A DNA stretch of 64,000 bases from Deltaproteobacteria bacterium (GCA_029262475.1 JAJCZG010000119.1:3378-67377); one strand, 5' to 3'. Positions 13,537 to 24,748 are shown, counted from the first letter of the stretch. Made by a program: numbers and translations. Notes: generated from the sequence alone by a model not told the origin.

Positions 13537-15636
13537 GTGATAGATTCGCTCTTTAAAAGCGCTCGTTCCATAAAATACTTCGGGGCCGCTGTCGCGTGCT
13601 TCGCGCTCTATACGGTCGTAACTTCTTTTAACGCTCTATCCCCTCTTCAGTGGGGGATAAGCCTTCTCCTTACGGCTGGCGCAGCGGGTATCTACTTCTC
13701 ACTTAACGCGCCGCCACTAAAAGCGTCCCCCGTAAAGACTTCGCTAACGGTCTTCACCTTTTACATCATAGCCGCACTCCTGGTATTTCACCCCACGATG
13801 CACAATATCTTCAGGAGTGATTACTGGCAGATATCTCTCTTATTTAATAGCATTTCGGAGTTGACCGTAGATGCCGCAAAGAGGCTCTCGCTCTTCGAAA
13901 TCTTCGGAGATATGCGCTTTCAGCCCGCCGCGCACCTCCTTATGTACTTCAGAGACCTTGCCTTCGGTAGCGAGGTCTTACTCTTTCATCTCCTTAATAT
14001 CACTCTCCACTCGGTAACCGGCTTTGCCCTATACGGCGCCCTTAACCGTTTCACGCGAGACCGGGCCTTCTCTTTCATATTCGGGCTTCTTTTTATAGTC
14101 CTCCAGAGCCACTTCGACACCGTTGTCTGGACCTATCATATCTATATAATACTCGGCTCCATACTGCTCCTCACCGCCGTTAACCTCACAAAGCGCTACA
14201 TAGACGGTGAGACGGCAGTCTCTATCTACATAGCGGCCCTCCTGTCAATAGTCTCCATCCTCCTCTACGAACCGTCGATAGCCATCCCGCTCCTCCTCTT
14301 TTTAATGGTCGGCGCGGCCTTCTTAACCAAAGATGGAGGGGTAGATAAGAAGCGGCTTATTATTGCCGGAGCCGGAGCCGCAGCAGTATATATTTTATAC
14401 GCAGGTGTTACGCTATTCGGCTTGTCGCTTACAGAAGGGGCACACAAGGTCGTCTCCGGCGGAGACCTCATAACCGTTGATAATATCTTAAAGGGGCTCG
14501 TTGCGCTCTTTAAAAGCCTCTGGCATACCATCTACCTTGAAAACATTGGCATTACGGCGGAGCTAAATATCGTAGAGATAATCTACATTCATCCGCCGGA
14601 AGAGTTAATTACGAGTTTTACTGCTGTAGTCATAATGGCCCTGTCGCTCGCCCTCTTCTCGCTCATGCGCGCAGACAAGAAGAACCGCTACTTCGCCCTA
14701 CTGCTGATACTTATTGGAATCTCCTACTTTTCGGTAATAGCGCTTGGAAGGGTCCACTCCAATTCGATAAGGTACGTTACCTCCCAGTCCCGTTACTTCT
14801 ACTTCCCGAACGCGGCCATCCTGCTCGCCTCAGGCATTCTCCTCTACCGGAAATACGGTGAGCAAAGCGCAAGGTGGATAATACTCATAATACTAACGGC
14901 CATCTTCTTCTGGAATACCTCGAATACCCAGATGGCGAATAACGCCGTCGATAGGAATATGCGCTTCCTGGACGCCCCCCACTACGAGCTAAAGGCATTT
15001 ACGGCCTCCAACCCTCAGGCGAAAGTATTTATCGACTACATCCCCTTTAACGAGGGGCGCCTCTTCCTCGGCTCCGATATTGCTCTGGAGATAATGCACA
15101 GAGGAGCGGTCACCAGGTATAAACGCCTTGCGACGCATATCTACGACGAGCGCGGTCTAAGGAAGAACCCATCCTACATGGCGGGCGCAGTACCTTCTCC
15201 GACACTCGGCGATTTTACCGTCAAGTGGACATTCCGCTTCTTCAAGCAGGCCGAGTCGTGGAAGGATATAGTCGTCATCGGCTCAGAGAATAATTACCCG
15301 CGCATTACGACCACCCTCGACGGGGTCATAAAACTTGCTCTCGTTAACGTCGAAACCGGCGCTGTAGAGGAGTTAAGCTTCCACCCGTCATACTTGCTAA
15401 AGGGCTATAACGACTGGTTCGAAGTTACCCTTGTAAAAGAAGGGGACGTTATCTGCCTCAAATACTTTGACATGATTAGCGATTCGGTGACCCTTACGTC
15501 GGAGTACGTGAACTGGCGTGCGGACGGCACGGAGCTCCTTGGCCCGCACTACTACGGAAAGGGCGCATCCTCTTACATTGCCGACCTCTTCCTGATGCTC
15601 GACGAAGCCAGGGGCGGGTGCGGAAAGCTCAAATAA
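13537..15636 (+). CDS. GT-C fold membrane glycosyltransferase, TMTC/PMT_2 (DUF1736)-like, paralog 1. It has an unassigned ~300-aa C-terminal domain and uses a GTG start.
   Basis: A multi-pass N-terminal domain carries RSDYW...RFQPAAHLL...FHLLNITLHSV...LFIVLQSHFDTVVWTY. These are collinear with the TMTC blocks DFWG...SYRPLT...YHLLNMIFHA...LFAVHPIHTEAVTGV. Compare the paralogs at 15654 and 31144. Confidence 0.6.
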   Translation: MIDSLFKSARSIKYFGAAVACFALYTVVTSFNALSPLQWGISLLLTAGAAGIYFSLNAPPLKASPVKTSLTVFTFYIIAALLVFHPTMHNIFRSDYWQISLLFNSISELTVDAAKRLSLFEIFGDMRFQPAAHLLMYFRDLAFGSEVLLFHLLNITLHSVTGFALYGALNRFTRDRAFSFIFGLLFIVLQSHFDTVVWTYHIYIILGSILLLTAVNLTKRYIDGETAVSIYIAALLSIVSILLYEPSIAIPLLLFLMVGAAFLTKDGGVDKKRLIIAGAGAAAVYILYAGVTLFGLSLTEGAHKVVSGGDLITVDNILKGLVALFKSLWHTIYLENIGITAELNIVEIIYIHPPEELITSFTAVVIMALSLALFSLMRADKKNRYFALLLILIGISYFSVIALGRVHSNSIRYVTSQSRYFYFPNAAILLASGILLYRKYGEQSARWIILIILTAIFFWNTSNTQMANNAVDRNMRFLDAPHYELKAFTASNPQAKVFIDYIPFNEGRLFLGSDIALEIMHRGAVTRYKRLATHIYDERGLRKNPSYMAGAVPSPTLGDFTVKWTFRFFKQAESWKDIVVIGSENNYPRITTTLDGVIKLALVNVETGAVEELSFHPSYLLKGYNDWFEVTLVKEGDVICLKYFDMISDSVTLTSEYVNWRADGTELLGPHYYGKGASSYIADLFLMLDEARGGCGKLK

Positions 15637-15653: not shown

Positions 15654-17759
15654 TTGAATAAAGACTATACAAATGCGATTCGCTTCACCGCGCCGGTAGG
15701 AGCTATATTTGCCATCACAGTCGCCTATACGACGTGGAGCTCGCTAAACTCGCTGCCGCCTTATCAGTGGGCTCTGGCATTCGCGCTACTAATAATTGCT
15801 CTTACGGCGCTCTTCTTTATGGAGAAGGGTCTACTAACCGCGAGGAGAGCGGCAGGCGTAACCGTCATCATCTACGCTCTCGTCGCATTTACGGCCTTTC
15901 ACTCCACAACCGGCAATATTTTCAGGAGCGACTACTGGCTAATCGCCGAGCTCTTCAACTCCTTCGACCAGGTAACCATCGATACGCTCAGGAGGATCTC
16001 TCTCTTTGAAATAATGGGCGACCCGAGGTTCCAACCTCTTGCCCACCTACTGATGTATTTACGGTTTCTCGTCTTTAAATTCAACCCGCTGGCCTTTCAT
16101 ACGCTCAATATCGCGCTCCACACTCTAACGGCCTTTCTTATTTACCTTATCGTTAAGGAGTTCACAGCCGAAAAGGGACTGGCCTTCATAACGGGGCTCA
16201 TCTTCATAGTGCTCCAGAGCCAATTCGATACCGTCGTCTGGACCTATCATATATATATTATTACCGGCGGAGCACTCCTCTTCGCCGCCATCCTCCTTGC
16301 CAGGAGATACTCAGTCACAGGAGAGAGGGCGTATTTCATATATGCGGTTCTATTCTCTCTCGCCTCGCTCCTCCTCTACGAACCGGCGGTAGCCGGGCCC
16401 GCCGCCGTAGCAGGCATAGTTTTATTTAACTGGCGACGCGACGGGCAAGCGGCGCCCCGGCGGACCATTTACTCTACTGCTCTAATCGCAATTGCCGCTT
16501 ACATCGCTTATATGTTGGTTACACTCTTCGGCACCTCTCTTACGACTACAAGCCACAAGATGGGCATGGGAGAGCTCACTACCTTATCAAATATTGGCCT
16601 TGCCGTTAAGGCGCTCTTCGTTAACTTATGGCAGAGCTCTTTTATCATAAATACCGGCATGACGGCTACGCTCGACCTCTCCGATATCGTTTACATACGG
16701 ATGCCTGAGGATATATTTACCACGATAAATATCATAAAGCTCATACCGGTCGTCTTTCTTGCGGCATCACTAAGGGCGGTAAAGGGGACGAGGGCTACCG
16801 CCGCGATAATCGCTACCATCGCCCTCTCCTACCTATTTATAATATCGCTCGGAAGGATGCATTCCAATTCGCTCGAATACTTCATAAGCCAGCCGCGTTA
16901 CCAGTACTTCCCCAATGCCGCGCTCATAATCCTTGTGGCCGTACTCCTGAGCGCAAAGTTTAAGGAGAAGATAAAAAAACCGCTTATCAGTGCCGCCCTC
17001 GCAGCTATCTTCTTCTGGAACCTGCAAAATACCCTTATAGCGAATAACAAGGTCTCAGACGGCATGGAGTTCCTCGACTCACACTATTACAGGATAAAAG
17101 ATTTTACCGCGAATGACCCGTCGAGAAAGCTATATATGAACTTTACTCCCGGCGAAGGTTTGAGGTTTGCACTCGGAGCGGATATCGCCCTCGACCTCAT
17201 GCTAGGCGAGCGCCTCAGCTCATTTCCGAGTAAAGCCACGCATATCTACACAGAGGACGATATCATGGAGAACCCTTTCAGGTCGGGCGGCGGCGTGGAG
17301 GCGGCAGAGCTCGGGAACTTCTTTGTCTCGTGGACATACCTTCCGGTCTACAAATTAACTCCGCAAGATGACGTGGAAGTGCTTGGGGGTAAGCACGGAG
17401 GGGCGCGTATATCCATTACCAACACCGGAGAAGTTAACTTCAGGGCAGTAAGGGCCGATACCGGTACTACCGATACTATTACACTAAAAAACCCTTATTT
17501 TGCCTCCTCGTACGCTTCACCGGAGGGCAAAAAAACACTCAAACATATGGCCGTCGTAAAGGACGGTAACGAGATTTGCCTTTACTTTAATAATAGACTT
17601 GCCGATAAAAAGATATTACACTATCCATATAAGAACTGGAGAGTGGACGGAAGCGAGCTCTTCGGAAGCCACTACTCAGGGAGTGGCGGTGCGGCCTACG
17701 TCCTCCGGCTCTTTAAACAGTTGGACTCCTCAGACTACTCATGCTCCAGCGAATCGTAG
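15654..17759 (+). CDS. GT-C fold membrane glycosyltransferase, TMTC/PMT_2 (DUF1736)-like, paralog 2. It is a tandem duplicate of the upstream gene.
   Basis: RSDYWLIAELFNSFDQ...RFQPLAHLL...FHTLNIALHTL...IFIVLQSQFDTVVWTYHIYII. It is collinear with paralog 1 along the whole length, including the C-terminal domain (…KNWRVDGSELFGSHY… against …VNWRADGTELLGPHY…). Confidence 0.6.
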   Translation: MNKDYTNAIRFTAPVGAIFAITVAYTTWSSLNSLPPYQWALAFALLIIALTALFFMEKGLLTARRAAGVTVIIYALVAFTAFHSTTGNIFRSDYWLIAELFNSFDQVTIDTLRRISLFEIMGDPRFQPLAHLLMYLRFLVFKFNPLAFHTLNIALHTLTAFLIYLIVKEFTAEKGLAFITGLIFIVLQSQFDTVVWTYHIYIITGGALLFAAILLARRYSVTGERAYFIYAVLFSLASLLLYEPAVAGPAAVAGIVLFNWRRDGQAAPRRTIYSTALIAIAAYIAYMLVTLFGTSLTTTSHKMGMGELTTLSNIGLAVKALFVNLWQSSFIINTGMTATLDLSDIVYIRMPEDIFTTINIIKLIPVVFLAASLRAVKGTRATAAIIATIALSYLFIISLGRMHSNSLEYFISQPRYQYFPNAALIILVAVLLSAKFKEKIKKPLISAALAAIFFWNLQNTLIANNKVSDGMEFLDSHYYRIKDFTANDPSRKLYMNFTPGEGLRFALGADIALDLMLGERLSSFPSKATHIYTEDDIMENPFRSGGGVEAAELGNFFVSWTYLPVYKLTPQDDVEVLGGKHGGARISITNTGEVNFRAVRADTGTTDTITLKNPYFASSYASPEGKKTLKHMAVVKDGNEICLYFNNRLADKKILHYPYKNWRVDGSELFGSHYSGSGGAAYVLRLFKQLDSSDYSCSSES

Positions 17760-17826: not shown

Positions 17827-18606
17827 ATGATACGCAAAGCCCTGCCAATCTTCTTATTCTTCTTACTCGTAACGCTTATGGCGGCCCTCGCACCTTCCTC
17901 GCAAGCCTTTACCGGTGCCGGGTGCGCTGAAGACTGCACAAGCTGTCATACCCTTGATATAGACGAGGCGAATAAACTCCTTAAAACCGAGAAGTTCGGC
18001 GCAAAGGTGACCGGCGTCAAGATGAGCCCCATTAAGGGTCTATGGGATGTGACCATCGAGAAGAACGGTAAAGAGATGGCTGCCTACGTCGACTTCGCAA
18101 AGCAATTCCTCGTCGAAGGGCGTTTCACACCGCTTGAGAATATTGGAAAGCAGCCGGAAGCGAAGAAACTTGATACATCAACAATACCCCTTGCCGACGC
18201 CGTGGTGATGGGCGACCCGAATGCTGCGCTTAAGGTCATCGTATTCGACGACCCGGATTGCCCGTACTGTAAAAAACTTCACAACGAGATAAAGACGATC
18301 ATTTCAAAAAGAAAGGATATCGCCTTCTACATCAAACTCTACCCGCTCGCCATGCACCCGGCGGCATATGCTAAGAGCAAGGCGATAGTCTGCGAAAGGT
18401 CCGTTAAACTCCTCGACGACGCCTTTAACGGCGTAGAGCTCCCGAAGCCTGAGTGCGATACCGACGATGTGGACAAGACCATAACGCTCGCTAAAAGCCT
18501 CGGCATTAACGGCACCCCCGGCATAGTGCTCCCGAACGGAACCCTCATACCCGGTTATGTAGTGGCTGATACGCTCATAAAAATGATAGACGAAAATACA
18601 AAATAA
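17827..18606 (+). CDS. Periplasmic thiol:disulfide interchange protein, DsbC/DsbG-like
   Basis: A signal peptide is followed by a DsbC-type N-terminal dimerisation region and a thioredoxin fold with DDPDCPYCKKLH (CPYC active site). There is an extra N-terminal GCAEDCTSCH motif. Confidence 0.7.
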   Translation: MIRKALPIFLFFLLVTLMAALAPSSQAFTGAGCAEDCTSCHTLDIDEANKLLKTEKFGAKVTGVKMSPIKGLWDVTIEKNGKEMAAYVDFAKQFLVEGRFTPLENIGKQPEAKKLDTSTIPLADAVVMGDPNAALKVIVFDDPDCPYCKKLHNEIKTIISKRKDIAFYIKLYPLAMHPAAYAKSKAIVCERSVKLLDDAFNGVELPKPECDTDDVDKTITLAKSLGINGTPGIVLPNGTLIPGYVVADTLIKMIDENTK

Positions 18607-18644
18607 CTTTTATTTCAATAGAGATTTCATAGGCACGTTAAAAG

Positions 18645-18686
18645 CCATTGCCGGGTAGATGCTTCTACCCGGTAAAGGCTTTTTTG
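18645..18686 (+). terminator. Rho-independent terminator of the dsbC-like gene
   Basis: The hairpin ccgggtag-atgctt-ctacccgg is followed by taaaggc and then TTTTTT. Confidence 0.5.
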
Positions 18687-18817
18687 ATATCATAAAGGTA
18701 TGAGGGAGACGGTTTGAGGCCCGGGCAGCTAATAAAAAAACCCCTTCCCCGGCCTCCCATTCACACTCTCTCCGGGTAATGGCTTCGCTCCCTCACCTTA
18801 TTAGATACATACAATCC

Positions 18818-18850
18818 AAAAAAACCCCGGCTCTCCAAGAAGGGCCGGGG
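18818..18850 (-). terminator. Rho-independent terminator of the minus-strand 829-aa TPR gene
   Basis: Read on the minus strand, a ~10-bp GC-rich stem (ccccggccct...agggccgggg on the plus strand) is followed by a U7 tract (A7 at 18818-18824 on the plus strand). It lies ~70 nt past the stop at 18917. Confidence 0.75.
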
Positions 18851-18916
18851 CGACTAAATATCACTAAGTAAATCTTTAATATAAATAAGCACGATACAAA
18901 GAGTAGCCGAAGACTG

Positions 18917-21406
18917 CTACTCTTTAGCGCTCTTATCCTCTTTCATATAGAATTTTTTCAGGTTAAATCTGGCGTTGACGTGCTCGGGATCAATCTTCAG
19001 GGCTTCTTTATATGACTTCTCCGCCTCTTTCGTTCTGCCTACCTTTTCATAGAGGATACCGAGGTTATTTAAGGCATAGGCATGTTTCGGGTCGGAACGC
19101 AGAGCCTCCTTGTATGCCTGCTCAGCCTCGGTAAGCAGGCCCATCTTGCCGTATATAATACCCTGGTTATAATAGCCGTTGGCGTAGTCCGGGTCAAGCT
19201 TCAGGGCCTCTTTATAAACATCGACGGCCGAGCGGTGCTCGCCCATCTTGCTGTAGAGATTTCCGAGGTTATTGTAGGTATAGGCATAGCCGGAGTCGAG
19301 CTTTATCGACCTCTTATAGGCCCTCTCAGCCAATTTGAACTTACCTGTCTTGGAGTATAGGTTGCCGAGGTAGTAATAAGGCCACGAGAAGTCAGGGTCG
19401 AGTTCGCTGGCCTTATTGTACTGTTCTATGGCCATCTCACTCTTCTTCATATCGTCGTAGATGGTGCCTAGCCTCAGTGTAAGTGTGGCCTTGACCTTCT
19501 TGTCGTCATGGTCCAGCGCGAGACCCTGAAAGACGTCTTCAAGCGCCTGGTGGAAGTTCTTACCCCTCCAGGCATCGGTTGAGAGAACAAGATAGTCCTC
19601 CGGAGCCCTGAGCTTCGCGTTTCTAAGCTCCGCCTCCTGAACCAGCTCAACGAGGGCCCTTGCGTCCTTCTCCGATGGTTTGTCCTGCGCCGCGCTCAGG
19701 GCAAGCGCCCTCTTCTCAGAGGTAAATGGAATGTAGGTCGGGTCAGTATTTTTGACGTAAAACCTATCCCTTAGATAGGGCTTTGCCACCAGGCCCGCTA
19801 CAGCGAGGATGCACACTATCAAGAGATAAAATATCACTGAGTGGGCCCACTCGCTTCCCTTCTTCTTCGTTGAAACGCTGCTGGGGGCCGGAGCGATATG
19901 GATCCTGCTGTCCATCCTTGAAGGGGCCTTTGGAGGGACGTACGCTCCCGGAGTCGACGGCAGGATTATGCATCGAGCCTCTCCTCGGTTCATCCTGCTT
20001 GATGGCGCCGCCTTGTTAACGGGCGGGGCCATCCACGAAGCGGTCTTCCTTGTGGTAGTCGTAACGGAACTTACCGATGGAGATACGGCGGGGGTATTGT
20101 CTTTAGACGGAGGGGTGCCGGGAGAAGAGACGGCAGGGGCAACATCAATACCTGAAGCTTCTCTTTTAACAGCGACCTTTGCGCTAATGGGCGTTACTCC
20201 TGCGCCATTGCCGCCAGGCTCCACGGAGAGCGCATCCCGTCTACCCTTCTTCTTTGTATAGAGAAAATCCTCTGGAAACCCGGCGCTATCCGTCCCTTCG
20301 AGCGTCTCTTCACCCTCCATTTCAGGCATATCGGACGAATCCAGTTCGTGGAGGTAAGGCACCCTGTGTTCGGCAAAATAAGGCTCTTTAGGCTCAGGGG
20401 CTTCCTTTGCCGCCAGAGCGCTATTTTCTTTGATACCCCTGCTGGAATGCTCTTCCGCTTCAAAGCCTTGTGACTTTTCATCACTTGTCGAGATTCTCCT
20501 CTTCCTCTCGGAGGCGGGGAATTTTTCAATATTTATCACAACGGCATCAGACTTCCAGGCTTTATCATCGGCATCTACGGCAGCCTCTGTAGTCACAGAC
20601 TCATCTTTGCGCCCAGATGAGCCCCCCGTGACATCTTCGGCGGCAGAGGAGGCTAGTACCACCGCAGGTGGTATGATCTCAACTTTACCGGCAGGGAACT
20701 CTTCAATCTTGATTGGAGATCTTTGCTCCGCCGTGGCGGCTTCTCCCGGAGCCTTTAAAGAAGGACGCGAGTGCGCGCACTCATCTTCACTAGCAAGAAC
20801 GGCAGGAAATTTCTCTATATTTATTATACTAGAAGCAAAGCTTTTTACGGAATCAGACCTCTCCGACTCTTCTTCATTCGAAGCGGTTGGCGTTTCTTTC
20901 CCGGTGGAGCGAAATTCTTCTATTACTATCGGCTGGCGCTTAGTGCTCATCACTGAAACCTCGTTGTCGTTATAATCCGCTACCGACTCTTCACGAGCCT
21001 CTCCGGCCTCCTCGGCAGCAGCGTCTTCGATAAGACCTGCTTCGGGAGCCTTCAGCTCCTCGCACTCATCAACTTCACCCGGGAGCCCTACCTCTGCAAT
21101 GATAATGGCGCTCGGGTCCGGGACTTCGATTGGCGAGGCTACCTGGAGATTCTCACTAGCTCCGGACTCAGCCATATCCTCTGTATTAGACGTCTCTGCA
21201 AGTGCACTATCTGGTGCAGCGGATATGGGGGCTTGAGCATTCTCCATAAGCTCATCAGAGAGCACGATAGCGTTATCCCACCTTCCTGCATAACCGCATC
21301 TCAGGCAATACATTACATTTCTGGCGATATTAATTCGCAGATGTGCGCCGGTGTCCGGAGCCATACCGGTATCCTGACAATAAGGACAATTACACTGTTT
21401 ATCCAT
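18917..21406 (-). CDS. Zinc-ribbon / TPR-repeat membrane protein of 829 aa. Layout: cytoplasmic CxxC...CxxC N-terminus, an acidic low-complexity linker with four I(N/E)IE(K/E)F(P/R) motifs, one transmembrane helix, then a C-terminal TPR array.
   Basis: The N-terminus reads MDKQCNCPYCQDTGM...YCLRCGYAG. Four motifs occur: QPIVIEEFRS, SIINIEKFPA, SPIKIEEFPA, AVVINIEKFPA. The transmembrane helix is SVIFYLLIVCILAVAGLVA. At least six TPR units follow, for example AYTYNNLGNLYSKMGEHRSAVDVYKEALKLDP. Confidence 0.7.
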   Translation of the reverse strand: MDKQCNCPYCQDTGMAPDTGAHLRINIARNVMYCLRCGYAGRWDNAIVLSDELMENAQAPISAAPDSALAETSNTEDMAESGASENLQVASPIEVPDPSAIIIAEVGLPGEVDECEELKAPEAGLIEDAAAEEAGEAREESVADYNDNEVSVMSTKRQPIVIEEFRSTGKETPTASNEEESERSDSVKSFASSIINIEKFPAVLASEDECAHSRPSLKAPGEAATAEQRSPIKIEEFPAGKVEIIPPAVVLASSAAEDVTGGSSGRKDESVTTEAAVDADDKAWKSDAVVINIEKFPASERKRRISTSDEKSQGFEAEEHSSRGIKENSALAAKEAPEPKEPYFAEHRVPYLHELDSSDMPEMEGEETLEGTDSAGFPEDFLYTKKKGRRDALSVEPGGNGAGVTPISAKVAVKREASGIDVAPAVSSPGTPPSKDNTPAVSPSVSSVTTTTRKTASWMAPPVNKAAPSSRMNRGEARCIILPSTPGAYVPPKAPSRMDSRIHIAPAPSSVSTKKKGSEWAHSVIFYLLIVCILAVAGLVAKPYLRDRFYVKNTDPTYIPFTSEKRALALSAAQDKPSEKDARALVELVQEAELRNAKLRAPEDYLVLSTDAWRGKNFHQALEDVFQGLALDHDDKKVKATLTLRLGTIYDDMKKSEMAIEQYNKASELDPDFSWPYYYLGNLYSKTGKFKLAERAYKRSIKLDSGYAYTYNNLGNLYSKMGEHRSAVDVYKEALKLDPDYANGYYNQGIIYGKMGLLTEAEQAYKEALRSDPKHAYALNNLGILYEKVGRTKEAEKSYKEALKIDPEHVNARFNLKKFYMKEDKSAKE

Positions 21407-21544
21407 GAAATTCCTCTAAGCTGTAGTCCTGAGAAGATTCCAAAAGAATCGACCGACTGCTCTTAAACCACTTTCCCAGGCAGTTCATAAGATGCAATGT
21501 TGCTAATTTCAACTATTTTTAGACTAAAAACGCAGGAGGAATTA

Positions 21545-21566
21545 AGCATATGCTGTGCATATGCTA
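21545..21566. promoter_or_regulatory. Tandem palindromic element AGCATATGCT-GT-GCATATGCTA, a candidate dimeric transcription-factor operator
   Basis: Two copies of the self-complementary GCATATGC core are separated by 2 nt. They sit ~140 nt upstream of the TPR gene start at 21406. Confidence 0.35.
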
Positions 21567-22030
21567 AGATTGTAATGTTTTTTATAGGCGAGAGTCAACT
21601 TTTATTTCGTATTTTTGAGTTTATTGTACAATAGCGACAAACCAGTTGTCCTTAGAGAGGGAGTTTTATAAGTGCATGAATCTATAGCAGATACTCCTGC
21701 CAGTGGCTTTGATAGTATCTCTTGTTGGCATTATTGTGTCTGAAAAAGATGGTAGAGAGCAATAAAAAGACTGTGCCCTCCCGGTAAAAGGTTACCGGCT
21801 TGCTCTGGAACTAAAATACCCCGGTCTTTCGTCTGATAGAGAGATTTGCATACGAGTTTCGCCAGTAAACGTATATCCGGAGAAATCGCTCGATATAAGG
21901 TTTTGGCTATCTTGCGTAGACCGGAGCTTAAAGATTGTGCGAATCGAAAGATAAAGGATTTGGCAAGGATTTAGTTAGGATCTATTTTGAAGAAGGGAAG
22001 GCTTAGCTGCTTGCAAGTGGTTGTTTTTAT

Positions 22031-22105
22031 TGGAGCCGGAGGGGAGAGTCGAACTCCCGACCAACTGATTACGAATCAGTTGCTCTACCCCTGAGCTACT
22101 CCGGC
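22031..22105 (-). tRNA. tRNA-Thr (anticodon CGU)
   Basis: The minus-strand sequence GCCGGAGTAGCTCAGGGGTAGAGCAACTGATTCGTAATCAGTTGGTCGGGAGTTCGACTCTCCCCTCCGGCTCCA folds into a cloverleaf. It has a 7-bp acceptor stem, a D arm GCTC/GAGC, an anticodon loop TTCGTAA (CGT) and a T arm GGGAG-TTCGACT-CTCCC. The CCA end is encoded. Confidence 0.9.
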
Positions 22106-22116
22106 GACAATTTAAA

Positions 22117-22145
22117 AGATTAAGGGATTAGCATTGTTTTGTCAA
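22117..22145 (-). promoter_or_regulatory. Promoter of tRNA-Thr
   Basis: On the minus strand, TTGACA is followed by a 17-nt spacer and TAATCT, ending ~11 nt before the mature tRNA 5' end. Confidence 0.45.
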
Positions 22146-22279
22146 GCATTTTAAGCCATTCGAGTATCTCAAAAAATCAAAACCACACTTATCTTCAACC
22201 GTTAAATTCCAGAGCAGGCTCTTGTAATAGATTGTACTCTGAAGGCACTCAAGGTTTGGGTAAAATCAGATTTTTTCTG

Positions 22280-22308
22280 TTGACACGTCGCATAAAGAAT
22301 GCTATATG
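22280..22308 (+). promoter_or_regulatory. Near-consensus sigma70 promoter with no downstream ORF. It may drive an ncRNA or a long leader of the GGDEF gene.
   Basis: TTGACA (22280-22285), a 17-nt spacer, then TATATG (22303-22308). The next credible CDS starts at 23123, ~800 nt downstream. Confidence 0.5.
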
Positions 22309-23122
22309 TATTACAGTCAAACAGAGTAAAGTTATCGCATCAGACTACTCAAACACACCACGTTACTGCATCCTGAGATTTGACAACCCGGTCTGAAATA
22401 TACTAATTGAAGACCAGCCATACGAAAAACTGCTCTCGCATCATAAGCTCTTTGAGATAACTCACGAGTTTAGGGTCGCCTAACCAGAATGTGAGATATT
22501 TCATACATTAAATCAACTAGATAAGGGCTTTGACCCCGGTCCGTTTTTCATGCAGGAATCGGGCATTAAGACGCCATCAATAATAGTCAATTTAAGCCGC
22601 TTGAATTCATGACGGACTCAAGCCCTTCTAGTGAAGATACCGTACTCTCACGTTTCATTGTGACCTTGCGGCTTTTTTCTGTAACATATTACTCTAATAC
22701 AAAAGCTATATAGTGGTTAACTCTGATATGATCGAAAAAGTTAGTCGATTATTTCTATAAATAGCTCTAAAACTGGCGGGGCCTCACTCAATATAGAACT
22801 CAAGGATAGCAGGCCTTACTCCTTGACAACACTACATATAGCAGCTAACATTAACGTTACCGTAAAATATATAATTATACAGGCGGACGTCAGCTCCTCG
22901 GTAAATATACATCTATCTGCCTGAATGGAGCCATAAACCGGCCAGTTTTTTAATTTTATCTATAACGGCCTTCAGTATTGCCGTTTGGAGGACGAGCTAG
23001 ACGTATATTTTTAAAAGAAATACGTATGGATTGCGGTTCATTTTACTCTTAAAGTAAAGATATTTTTGCTCTACCAAATATTTCACATCGCATTTTGAGC
23101 AAAATCAATCGTCCTTGTAACG

Positions 23123-24748
23123 ATGAAAGTACCTATGAAAAAAGAAACTCCAAAAGATATTACGGAGATCAGGTCTGAAAAAGAGGCCGGGAGTACCGAT
23201 AAAATTCTAGTTGTGGATGGTACGGATAAGACCCTTGACACTTCCCACAAGGAGGGTTTTGACATCCACTACGCACCCGATCTACAGGAAGCATCCAGGC
23301 TCGCCGAAGAGTTCGAGCAGTGTCTGGTTCTAGGCACCCTTACGACAGAGAAGAAGGTTCCAACCGGCACCGCCGCCCACATGAGCGGGATCACAAAGAT
23401 AAGTAAATCCCTCCAAAGCGCCCTTACGACTGTACACGAGGCCATGAGCCTGGAGGCCGCGCGCCTTGTGGAAAACAACAACGTCGGCTCCGATCAGCTC
23501 GCCTTGATAAGCACCGTCAACAAGTCTCTTCAAGAAGCCCTGACGACCGTCTACGAAGCGATGAATAACGAATCCGACAGGCTTGTGGAGTGCGACTCAG
23601 GCGAAAACTATGTGATTAAACCCTTCGAGGATGCAGAGCTTGCCGTAAGGCTAAGGGGGCTTTTAAGCTCATCGAAGGAGGTCGCCGAGCTACAGGAAGA
23701 GAAACATCGCCTTGAGAGCCTTCTTTCAATCATAAAGTCCGTACTCTCAAGCCTAAATATTGCAGACATCAGGAACGTAATCGTCACCAAACTAGCCGAG
23801 GCGATACAGACAAAAGACTGTTCGGTCCTGCTCCTTAAAAAGGATTACGATGAGTGCTTTGTCCTGGATAGCGCAAGGGGGCTCCCCAATAGCGAACTGA
23901 GGGTAGATCTCAACAACTACCCGGAACTAAAGAAGGTGCTCGACACAAAGGAGCCTCTCGCCATCAGAAATATACTCGAGCACCCCCTGATGTCAGAGGT
24001 AAAGGACTCCATCAAGGACAAGATCGAGACAAGCTCCATGGTCATACCGATAGTCTTTGACGACCCGGTCCTCGGAACGATATTCCTTAAGCTCAACAGG
24101 GGCGGAACCGAGTTCAGCGAAGAAGAGATGACGCTCTGCAGCGCGGTAGCCGAGGCATCATTTTTCGCCATGAAGAACGCCATCATCCACGAGGAGGTTC
24201 AAAAAGAGAAGGACCGCCTTAAGAAGATCGCCATAACCGACCACCTTACCAATATCTATAACCATAACTACTTCTATAAACGTCTTGCCGAGGAGTTCTC
24301 AAGGGCATCTCGTTACGATTCACCACTAAGCCTTATAATGATGGATATTGACGATTTCAAGCAGATAAACGACCTCTACGGCCACAGGGTCGGAGACGTA
24401 GTACTTCAGCAAATTGCAGGGCTACTTAAGGATTCGGTGAGGAAGGCCGATATCGTCGCCAGGTACGGCGGCGAGGAGTTTGCGGCGATCCTCCCGTCTA
24501 CGAGTATTGAAGGGGCGATTGAAGAGGCGGAGAGGATCCGTGAGAGGCTCGAAAGGCACTCCTTTGACGAGATACCTCAAAAGAAGATAACCATAAGCAT
24601 CGGCATAGCCGCTTATGACAAGAAGACCGTCATGAACCTTGGCCAGTTCGTAAATATGGCCGACCGCGCCCTCTACGAAGCCAAGAAGTGCGGCAAGAAC
24701 TGCGTTCGCGTCTCTCCTCCTGCGGACGAAATGAGGCGGCACGCTTAG
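23123..24748 (+). CDS. Diguanylate cyclase with a degenerate, split receiver-like N-terminus, a GAF-like middle region and a C-terminal GGDEF domain
   Basis: The C-terminus has ...RYGGEEFAAILP... (an intact GGEEF) together with the ...YEAKKCGKNCVRV-type ending. Receiver-domain fragments are KILVVDG... and ...NYVIKPFEDAELAVRLRGLL. They are separated by an insert carrying the repeat SLQSALTTVHEAMSLEAARLVE / SLQEALTTVYEAMNNESDRLVE. Confidence 0.8.
   Translation: MKVPMKKETPKDITEIRSEKEAGSTDKILVVDGTDKTLDTSHKEGFDIHYAPDLQEASRLAEEFEQCLVLGTLTTEKKVPTGTAAHMSGITKISKSLQSALTTVHEAMSLEAARLVENNNVGSDQLALISTVNKSLQEALTTVYEAMNNESDRLVECDSGENYVIKPFEDAELAVRLRGLLSSSKEVAELQEEKHRLESLLSIIKSVLSSLNIADIRNVIVTKLAEAIQTKDCSVLLLKKDYDECFVLDSARGLPNSELRVDLNNYPELKKVLDTKEPLAIRNILEHPLMSEVKDSIKDKIETSSMVIPIVFDDPVLGTIFLKLNRGGTEFSEEEMTLCSAVAEASFFAMKNAIIHEEVQKEKDRLKKIAITDHLTNIYNHNYFYKRLAEEFSRASRYDSPLSLIMMDIDDFKQINDLYGHRVGDVVLQQIAGLLKDSVRKADIVARYGGEEFAAILPSTSIEGAIEEAERIRERLERHSFDEIPQKKITISIGIAAYDKKTVMNLGQFVNMADRALYEAKKCGKNCVRVSPPADEMRRHA

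Follow-up and report, generated by a model that had tools for sequence, protein, structure and literature searches.

Locus and gene architecture

We analyzed a 64,000-nt stretch of DNA from a bacterium labeled Deltaproteobacteria (GCA_029262475.1 JAJCZG010000119.1:3378-67377; hereafter the window), and within it a complete minus-strand open reading frame (ORF) at positions 18917-21406 that begins with ATG and encodes 829 aa. The predicted product joins an N-terminal zinc ribbon, a long low-complexity linker with a repeated short motif, a single transmembrane (TM) helix, and a C-terminal array of tetratricopeptide repeats (TPRs), and we refer to it as the ribbon-TPR protein. Judging from its relatives, it is very probably a chimera that is restricted to one lineage and carries the zinc-binding domain of a phage-type primase on a membrane protein (Table 1). 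An earlier note on this DNA had described the same four-part architecture, which we recovered in full, including the four motif copies exactly as quoted, and had proposed that the protein serves neighboring glycosyltransferases, a claim that fared less well and is taken up in the Discussion.

The gene order in the window is lysA-dapF-dapA-dapB-parA-parB-dsbC-like on the plus strand, followed by the ribbon-TPR gene (-), tRNA-Thr(CGT) (-), a GAF-GGDEF gene (+), and thiC (-), where parA and parB denote two tandem paralogs. The gap between the ribbon-TPR gene and this pair is 1158 bp, as the 1.2 kb given earlier had implied, and contains the DsbC-like gene. For comparison we used an orthologous locus in assembly GCA_029262495.1 (L001/L003), a third ortholog on an ENA contig (L008; 3 kb, 3x coverage, two frameshifts, N-terminus of the ortholog absent), and three loci from relatives that bear ParA-family genes (L005, L006, and L007).

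Public gene calls for the ribbon-TPR gene begin at Met15, giving 815 aa (P0001) or, for one copy of the ortholog, 823 aa (P0002), and lose the first CxxC, while the NCBI call for the ortholog in GCA_029262495.1 (837 aa) takes the upstream start. When the two positions in the window were compared (21404-21406 for the upstream ATG, 21362-21364 for the public calls), the upstream ATG was predicted to be the better start, because a Shine-Dalgarno sequence lies 4 nt upstream of it and the extension is conserved in the ortholog. There, the ATG, the Shine-Dalgarno sequence, an in-frame stop just upstream, and CPYC are all kept, and the changes are synonymous and conservative.

Against the L003 ortholog, the ratio of nonsynonymous to synonymous substitution rates (dN/dS) was 0.35 overall, 0.18 in the zinc ribbon, and 0.51 in the linker, with the lowest values in the membrane and TPR parts (Table 1). 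These ratios point to a real coding gene under purifying selection on every part, relaxed in the linker. Because the gene has a terminator-like hairpin and a promoter-like site of its own, and a separate terminator-like hairpin follows the dsbC-like gene, we read it as a monocistronic unit that is convergent with parA-parB-dsbC.

N-terminal zinc ribbon

The N-terminus reads CPYC...CLRC and corresponds to a four-Cys zinc ribbon, with C7, C10, C34, and C37 as the predicted zinc ligands since Cys5 is replaced by Ser in the ortholog. All four ligands are kept there. An exhaustive phmmer search with aa 1-575 aligned aa 1-53 with the very beginning of ten proteins of 79-321 aa (29-52% identity, E down to 2.5e-8); identity to the N-termini of Toprim primases of 240-320 aa was 42-52%, and most full-length relatives show Toprim and DnaG-type zinc-ribbon Pfam signals. 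The PHROG family phrog_47 ("DNA primase") was matched by the ribbon alone (E = 1.5e-4) and by the six relatives scanned (1e-20 to 1e-33), and a profile of the aligned ribbons gave marginal PDB matches to DnaG zinc-binding domains (1d0q, E = 0.013; 2au3, E = 0.13). Relatives of the ribbon also occur on ten IMG/VR viral contigs at 32-50% identity, and the two that were inspected sit within primase ORFs of ~300 aa.

The feature of DnaG/T7-gp4-type primases found in the protein is thus the N-terminal Cys4/CHC2 zinc-binding domain. Neither Toprim nor DNAG_N was matched in aa 46-575 even at E <= 10 (Pfam), the phmmer alignments to primases end at ~aa 53 and at most at aa 102, and tblastn found neither primase remnants nor a copy of the short paralog described below elsewhere in the window. 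Pfam at E <= 10 returned nothing useful for the ribbon and linker. On sequence grounds, the ribbon and the zinc-binding domain of small Toprim primases from phages are homologs, and the protein itself is not a primase. We rejected a reading of the ribbon as a zf-HC2 anti-sigma domain: neither zf-HC2 nor RsdA was matched at E <= 10, and there is no adjacent sigma-factor gene.

In the five primases nearest to the ribbon (P0030, P0031, P0037, P0038, and P0039), a strand-like [IV]-[EDN]-[IL]-[FY]-x-F element lies shortly after the ribbon, at aa ~55-75. Its versions (IELYSF, IDIFSF, IELFNF, VELFPF, and VNLFSF) have the same phi-x-phi-x-x-F register as the motif repeated in the linker of the ribbon-TPR protein, a resemblance that could be due to chance.

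Linker and repeated motif

The linker had been described as acidic and ~450 aa long. Its length is close to that, at ~470 aa, and its net charge is -35 overall, but only aa 46-400 are acidic (net -45), whereas aa 401-523 are basic (net +10) and rich in Pro, Ser, Thr, Ala, and Gly; the acidity is not kept in the L008 ortholog. Among 1.84 billion representative proteins, the exhaustive phmmer search with aa 1-575 found no homologs of the linker, and no Pfam domain was matched in aa 46-575 at E <= 10. In the AlphaFold2 (AF2) model of the full-length protein, built on a shallow alignment of three sequences and confident for the TPRs only, the predicted local distance difference test score (pLDDT) stays below 50 across the linker and no helices are predicted in aa 46-518. 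Together with its composition, this suggests that the linker is probably disordered.

The pattern [IV]x[IV]E[EK]F, set after the motifs had been seen, occurs four times in the linker against 0.0027 expected, and none of 20,000 composition-preserving shuffles held two or more copies (0/20,000). Over the three orthologs, copy 1 follows the consensus QP[IV]VIEEF and copy 2 GF[AD]S[SG][IV]Ix[IM]EKFPA; the overall form is [ST]x[IV][IV]x[IV]E[EK]FPA, and the four positional copies are kept. At the DNA level, copies 2-4 of the window are 79-83% identical over 24 nt (repeat family D3) and therefore arose by duplication. In L008, the region around copy 2 is amplified at 219-1307 into twelve copies of a 90-bp unit (89% identity) that encodes KGFDSSV[IV]DVEEFPA[VA]PAGKAKExKKASPS. 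The motif totals are accordingly four in the window, four in L003, and ~15 in L008, so that the earlier expectation of a conserved motif that is always multi-copy holds in all three orthologs. A second tandem unit, further downstream in the same contig (1765-1980), consists of five in-frame copies of 42 bp encoding GDTDLKKPRLAExK; copy numbers are provisional at 3x coverage.

A three-way alignment of the protein with its L003 and L008 orthologs revealed islands of identity amid a diverged linker, among them the four motif positions and E[DE]VTGG. At least five further islands besides the motifs are shared by the three lineages, while the sequence between islands diverges to ~50% identity, and the frame stays open over 1.5 kb in both complete orthologs. 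With its alternating hydrophobic residues followed by acidic-Phe-Pro, the motif would be suited to beta-strand addition, and its conservation and multi-copy state fit a reiterated docking peptide. Among known peptides, the beta-clamp-binding motif, the PIP box, the SSB C-terminal tail, the FtsZ C-terminal peptide, and the Hsp70/90 EEVD motif were judged to be poor fits. Binding of the motif to the protein's own TPRs in the manner of EEVD is ruled out by the opposite sidedness of the two regions, as predicted below.

Transmembrane helix, TPR array, and topology

The TM helix was located by Kyte-Doolittle hydropathy, and topology was judged from charge counts and sequence features. The segment that follows the helix contains DPTYIPFTSEKRxLALSAAQDKPSEKDARALVE, which is conserved in P0029 and P0040-43 (see below). 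The Pfam model TPR_1 (PF00515) matched the C-terminal part in five stretches, at E = 1.2e-44 and 148.8 bits against a cut-off of 27.8, with at least three tandem 34-aa units being the usual mark of TPR_1 repeat proteins. The AF2 model shows helical pairs at pLDDT 80-95 in this region, arranged as five canonical repeats and a cap after a degenerate pair. The TPR array reported earlier is therefore real, although the count of six or more was slightly too high, as it is made up of five canonical units plus the cap and the degenerate pair.

The TPR array had also been placed in the periplasm by the positive-inside rule. That location is most likely, but the local charge count around the TM helix is a tie (+2/+2 over 15 aa) and other evidence has to carry it. 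In short relatives with two TM helices, the inter-TM loop is basic (KMRK, +3) and is followed by an acidic or neutral segment; their TPRs are therefore predicted to lie outside the cytoplasm. For the ribbon-TPR protein, an N-in/C-out orientation with periplasmic TPRs is most likely because the 523-aa N-terminus has no signal sequence and holds a Cys4 zinc site, because the membrane-proximal segment carries a charge of +10, and because of the basic inter-TM loop in the paralogs.

Relatives and origin

When aa 1-632 were used in a word-seeded search of 5.8 billion clusters, only the protein itself and one ortholog (L003) came back. This ortholog is 66% identical overall, with ~53% for the linker and 83-89% for the ribbon and for the TM and TPR parts. 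The phmmer search with aa 1-575 additionally gave a 105-aa fragment (P0029), which led to the third ortholog on L008, so that three closely related bacteria, all uncultured, are the only known carriers of the long form. No long or short members of the family were found among the 185,579 representative genomes of GTDB, nor did either of two scans of metagenome contigs from JGI yield any.

With aa 503-829 as the query, two proteins of ~355 aa with two TM helices (P0040 and P0041) were found at 62-64% identity, along with remoter relatives of ~340-370 aa (P0042 and P0043). What these proteins have in common with the ribbon-TPR protein is all of the TPRs, the last TM helix, and between them a family-specific juxtamembrane segment (...YTPFSSEKRExAL..KDRPSEKDA.ALVEL..EAELR...PED.LVLST.AWR...). 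P0040, which is 64% identical over the TM and TPR parts, comes from the assembly that also holds the long-form ortholog (GCA_029262495.1), where it lies on another contig, and is therefore a paralog. Its gene is flanked by STAS and HDOD genes and lies beside an Mla operon, with no glycosyltransferase of the C superfamily (GT-C) nearby. P0040 and P0041 are 86% identical, and the TPR regions of the long-form orthologs 85%; these matching divergences would fit a TM-TPR duplication that took place before the species split. Taken together, the protein is very probably a lineage-restricted chimera assembled from a primase ribbon (~53 codons including the start), an orphan linker of ~470 aa, and a duplicated TM-TPR segment (~300 codons).

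Table 1. Positions of the ribbon-TPR gene, its predicted parts, and surrounding features in the window.
Feature	Position	Strand	Remarks
Ribbon-TPR ORF (Zn ribbon, disordered linker, TM helix, TPR array, as predicted)	18917..21406	-	Read from the upstream ATG
Predicted primase-type zinc ribbon, aa 1-53	21248..21406	-	phmmer, PHROG, PDB profile; no catalytic domain after it
Low-complexity linker, aa 54-523, ~470 aa	19838..21247	-	Probably disordered
Motif copy 1, QPIVIEEF, aa 158-165 (in QPIVIEEFRS, aa 158-167)	20912..20935	-	Identical in L003; QPVVIEEF in L008
Motif copy 2, SSIINIEKFPA, aa 192-202	20801..20833	-	SGIIHIEKFPA in L003; amplified in L008
Motif copy 3, SPIKIEEFPA, aa 230-239	20690..20719	-	PSIEIEEFSS in L003, TSIEINVFHT in L008; weaker copy
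Motif copy 4, AVVINIEKFPA, aa 288-298	20513..20545	-	AVVINIEEFPV in L003; GVVINIEESSI in L008, Phe lost
Distal linker, aa 341-523, with islands PYFAEHxxxYLHEL, GFPEDFxY, SWMAPPxNKxAPS, AYVPP..PSRMDSR	19838..20386	-	Alignment with L003 and L008
Single TM helix, aa 524-540, VIFYLLIVCILAVAGLV	19787..19837	-	Kyte-Doolittle peak 2.83; kept in L003, L008, and P0029; helix in AF2 model
Juxtamembrane region and degenerate helical pair, aa 541-640	19487..19786	-	Common to short paralogs; dN/dS 0.155 (TM plus juxtamembrane)
Five canonical TPR_1 repeats (units aa 641-810) and capping helix, aa 641-829	18917..19486	-	Predicted periplasmic; dN/dS 0.14
Shine-Dalgarno sequence, AGAGGAA	21411..21417	-	4 nt upstream of ATG; AGAGGGA in L001
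Candidate sigma-70-like promoter, TTGACT, 18 nt, TACAAT	21569..21598	-	Consensus scan only, 10/12 matches
Intrinsic-terminator-like hairpin and T-run, 3' of the ribbon-TPR stop codon	18825..18840	-	Separate from that of parA-parB-dsbC
Terminator-like hairpin, strong, 12-bp stem, ending the convergent parA-parB-dsbC unit	18648..18675	+	Separate from that of the ribbon-TPR gene
ParA and ParB, tandem paralogs	13537-15636, 15654-17759	+	40% identical; ~23-member family
tRNA-Thr(CGT), 3' end bounding the variable slot	22031..22105	-	Same tRNA in L003, L006, and L007

Neighboring genes and the variable slot

The block lysA-dapFAB-parA-parB-dsbC-[slot]-tRNA-Thr-GGDEF-thiC recurs in related genomes. 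Its slot, bounded by dsbC and the tRNA-Thr 3' end (18607-22030 in the window), is occupied by the ribbon-TPR gene in the window and in L003. In L006, the gene found there lies on the other strand and encodes an unrelated polytopic protein of 481 aa, and in L007 the slot is empty, with ~480 bp separating the tRNA 3' end from dsbC. The slot is thus variable, and the ribbon-TPR gene is one of several occupants. We found no att-like direct repeats of the tRNA 3' end around the gene (an exact repeat of 12 nt at 18605 and 21597 is no more than chance would give, with ~0.4 expected) and no integrase, mobile, or defense gene near it; a recent integrative island was considered and set aside, with no att-like repeat flanking the gene to support it. 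Rfam identified only the tRNA in 18000-23500. Between the tRNA and the GAF-GGDEF gene lies ~1 kb of AT-rich DNA (22106-23122; GC 0.44 over 22-24 kb) without an ORF of more than 85 aa, of which the part from 22106 to ~22870 is ~73% identical to L003 and has no Rfam match.

The DsbC-like thioredoxin-fold protein (17827-18606, +) has the active site CPYC. Its mature N-terminus, after the signal peptide, carries C-x3/4-C-[TS]-x-C-H (GCAEDCTSCH), which resembles a CxxCH c-type heme-attachment site, and this segment is kept in all four loci compared (the window; L003, 14296-15075; L006, 14710-15504; L007, 20620-21393).

ParA and ParB had been classed as TMTC-like GT-C enzymes of the PMT_2 type. Neither gave a significant match to PMT_2 (PF13231), TMTC/DUF1736, YfhO, or any other model of Pfam and NCBIfam, GT-C models included; 18 members of the ParA family gave none even at E <= 1, and Pfam annotation is absent in 23 of 23 homologs. 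The likeness to GT-C enzymes lies at the level of the fold: in an AF2 model of ParA (pLDDT 84.6), the TM domain resembles those of the oligosaccharyltransferase-type GT-C proteins AglB, STT3, and PglB (Foldseek, E 2-5e-4, TM-score 0.30-0.38), and the C-terminal ~200 aa form a lectin-like jelly roll similar to the receptor-binding domain of botulinum neurotoxin (E down to 5.6e-6). Two family members show weak Laminin_G_3 matches. On this model it is reasonable to call ParA and ParB GT-C-like, and they look like an undescribed family with its own lectin-like domain, in an operon with the DsbC-like gene downstream of lysine-biosynthesis genes. In L007, the single ParA homolog comes after genes for a glycosyltransferase of family 2 (GT2) and DUF2304, a context that fits a polyprenyl-phosphate-sugar pathway. 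In L005, 6 kb from the ParA-family gene, a fused multi-TM and TPR protein (TMTC-like, 537 aa) is encoded between two PMT_2 genes (18532-22178), and true GT-C and TPR fusions therefore exist in the lineage.

Discussion

Our best explanation overall, which we hold tentatively and with somewhat less than even confidence, is that the ribbon-TPR protein is a chimera acting as a bitopic inner-membrane scaffold or adaptor, with ribbon and linker in the cytoplasm and the TPR superhelix in the periplasm. The TPR domain would hold an extended periplasmic or envelope ligand, probably of the same kind as that of the short paralog, and the linker would present a multivalent array of docking peptides. This array could recruit several copies of one cytoplasmic partner, or it could bind the protein's own zinc ribbon intramolecularly, and the primase ribbon would have been exapted as a protein-binding, possibly nucleic-acid-binding, head. 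The intramolecular option would resemble GltJ of Myxococcus xanthus, in which the ribbon sits on a linker motif until a partner competes it off. Such a scaffold or switch mechanism, drawn from analogy, is doubtful when taken by itself.

Several observations count against this explanation. The mechanism has been built by analogy. Only three orthologs are available, one of them on the frameshifted 3x contig without its N-terminus, and in that ortholog motif copies 3 and 4 are degenerate. Outside its islands the linker is weakly constrained, as its dN/dS of 0.51 indicates, and the call of disorder draws on composition and on low pLDDT from the three-sequence alignment, in a model that left the zinc ribbon unfolded as well. 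Compared with GltJ, a GYF domain is absent (no Pfam match in aa 46-575), and the ribbon is of the primase type, the PDB profile search not having returned the GltJ ribbon; compared with the scaffolds PodJ and HubP, no coiled coil or oligomerization domain appears in the AF2 model.

A further version, which we regard as improbable, is that the domesticated primase ribbon is a regulatory head that docks reversibly on the [IV]x[IV]E[EK]FP strands of its own linker. A partner would compete for these strands, and the copy number of the motif (4 to 15) would tune valency, coupling periplasmic TPR binding to cytoplasmic recruitment. Because a phi-x-phi-x-x-F element follows the ribbon in the five nearest primases, the linker motif may descend from a natural ribbon-contacting segment of primases.

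The protein could also be a near-neutral accident, although we consider this unlikely. Here, a duplicated TPR gene would have landed in a tRNA-adjacent hot spot behind the 5' remnant of a phage primase, with only the TM and TPR parts functional and redundant with the paralog, and the N-terminal 520 aa would be tolerated baggage that drifts and expands by slippage. The absence of linker homologs, the relaxed dN/dS of the linker, the tandem expansion in L008, which is typical of slippage-prone sequence, the variable slot beside the tRNA 3' end, and the very narrow distribution (absent from the GTDB representatives and the JGI metagenomes) would all be expected from such an origin. It accounts poorly for the constraint on the ribbon (dN/dS 0.18), in which four ligands, start codon, and Shine-Dalgarno sequence are kept, for motifs and at least five linker islands that persist in three lineages while the intervening sequence is ~50% identical, and for a 1.5-kb linker frame that is open in both complete orthologs.

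A role linked to nucleic acids or to conflict with phages is very unlikely. The ribbon would still bind single-stranded DNA or mimic the phage primase domain, and the protein would either anchor DNA or a replication factor at the membrane or serve the cell as a decoy or sensor when phages with this primase attack. The nearest relatives of the ribbon are indeed all phage-type primases, ten of them on viral contigs, and primase zinc-binding domains recognize template DNA (DnaG and T7 gp4); the gene also adjoins a tRNA gene, and tRNA genes are common integration sites. On the other side, neither an integrase, an att repeat, nor mobile or defense genes were found nearby, and when the catalytic core is missing, the zinc-binding domains of primases have weak affinity for DNA. 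PADLOC gave generic TPR-level matches only, for which reason a defense-system reading was dropped, and it is not obvious what a TPR domain in the periplasm would contribute here.

Equally improbable, in our assessment, is the proposal of the earlier note, by which the periplasmic TPRs would be a trans-acting acceptor-binding subunit of ParA and ParB, a TMTC enzyme split in two. The proximity of 1.2 kb in both genomes with known context, the STT3-, PglB-, and AglB-like TM domain of the paralogs, the predicted position of the TPRs on the side faced by GT-C active sites, the TPR_1 class shared with TMTC1 in generic matches (26-35% identity), and the fused protein of L005 speak for it. Against it, the paralogs fail PMT_2, YfhO, and every other GT-C model of Pfam and NCBIfam, and they already carry a lectin-like periplasmic domain of ~200 aa, so that an acceptor-binding module is not obviously missing. 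The ribbon-TPR gene is convergent with the pair and separately terminated, and the closest relative of its TPR half lies in a STAS/HDOD/Mla neighborhood without a GT-C gene. The co-occurrence with GT-C genes that had been expected breaks down at L005, L006, and L007, where ParA homologs have no ribbon-TPR gene nearby; the slot is empty in L007 and otherwise filled in L006. The only two genomes known to share the adjacency are so close (ParA 83% identical) that synteny is uninformative, and the 520-aa cytoplasmic part would be left unexplained. Annotation of ParA and ParB as TMTC/PMT_2 enzymes whose TPR subunit has been split off should thus be avoided.

If the scaffold explanation is true, a phage replication module, the zinc-binding domain of a primase, was taken over by a bacterial envelope protein as a head for protein interactions, in a clear case of exaptation. 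The motif array, with a copy number that shifts between sister lineages, would offer a rare view of multivalency evolving in a bacterial disordered region, and the protein would be a second, unrelated case of the GltJ-type design of zinc ribbon plus linker motif. For now the impact is small, as the family is limited to three uncultured relatives. The domain combination is not known to have been described before, and one would not expect a membrane TPR protein to carry the zinc-binding domain of a primase, but the general design, with a cytoplasmic ribbon or disordered region, a TM helix, and a periplasmic repeat domain, is already known.

The separate parts of the protein compare with different systems. 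With small phage Toprim primases of the DnaG/T7-gp4 type (phrog_47; Zn_ribbon_DnaG, PF01807), it is alike over aa 1-53, sharing the pattern NCPYC-x3-G-x-[ST]PD-x3-HL-x-IN-x7-C-x-RC-x3-G at the very N-terminus, but its ribbon is joined to a membrane protein and the RNA-polymerase/Toprim core is absent. With the short two-TM paralogs it shares the TM-TPR half and the predicted outward TPRs; these carry a TM hairpin of 40 aa where the ribbon-TPR protein has its 523-aa ribbon and linker, and their neighborhood is different. In the eukaryotic O-mannosyltransferases TMTC1-4, the TPRs are fused to the GT-C domain, and their TPR_1-class repeats lie on the extracytoplasmic or luminal side, like those predicted here; TMTC1 fragments appear among the generic TPR matches. 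In contrast, the ribbon-TPR protein has no GT-C domain, and its neighbors fall outside the PMT_2/TMTC profiles and are not co-transcribed with it, as far as the predicted terminators and promoter indicate.

PodJ, a polar scaffold of Caulobacter crescentus, recruits PleC through a charged-block disordered region in the cytoplasm and has a TM anchor and a periplasmic TPR domain, along with six coiled coils for self-assembly and a periplasmic peptidoglycan-binding domain (PMC8980812). The ribbon-TPR protein is likewise predicted to be bitopic, with a large cytoplasmic N-terminal part that includes a disordered region, a single TM helix, and periplasmic TPRs. It differs in having a zinc ribbon and no LysM or PG_binding Pfam matches, and homology does not extend beyond generic TPRs.

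GltJ (AgmX) belongs to the Agl-Glt gliding machinery of M. xanthus, where its N-terminal zinc ribbon binds a motif within the protein's disordered linker until MglA-GTP drives it off, and the freed ribbon recruits MglB; according to its authors, modules of this type are attached to diverse transmembrane and extracellular regions (PMC11135422). The likeness to the ribbon-TPR protein is one of architecture only: an N-terminal cytoplasmic zinc ribbon, a flexible linker with a docking motif, a TM segment, and an extracytoplasmic part. Both proteins come from the former "Deltaproteobacteria" sensu lato, and a ParA-family homolog occurs in a related metagenome-assembled genome labeled Deltaproteobacteria. 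On the other hand, the motif is present in 4-15 copies compared with a single one in GltJ, the linker has about five times the length of that in GltJ, TPRs make up the periplasmic part, and Glt or Mgl genes were not seen among the genes examined around the locus. The ribbon-TPR protein belongs to neither the GltJ nor the PodJ family.

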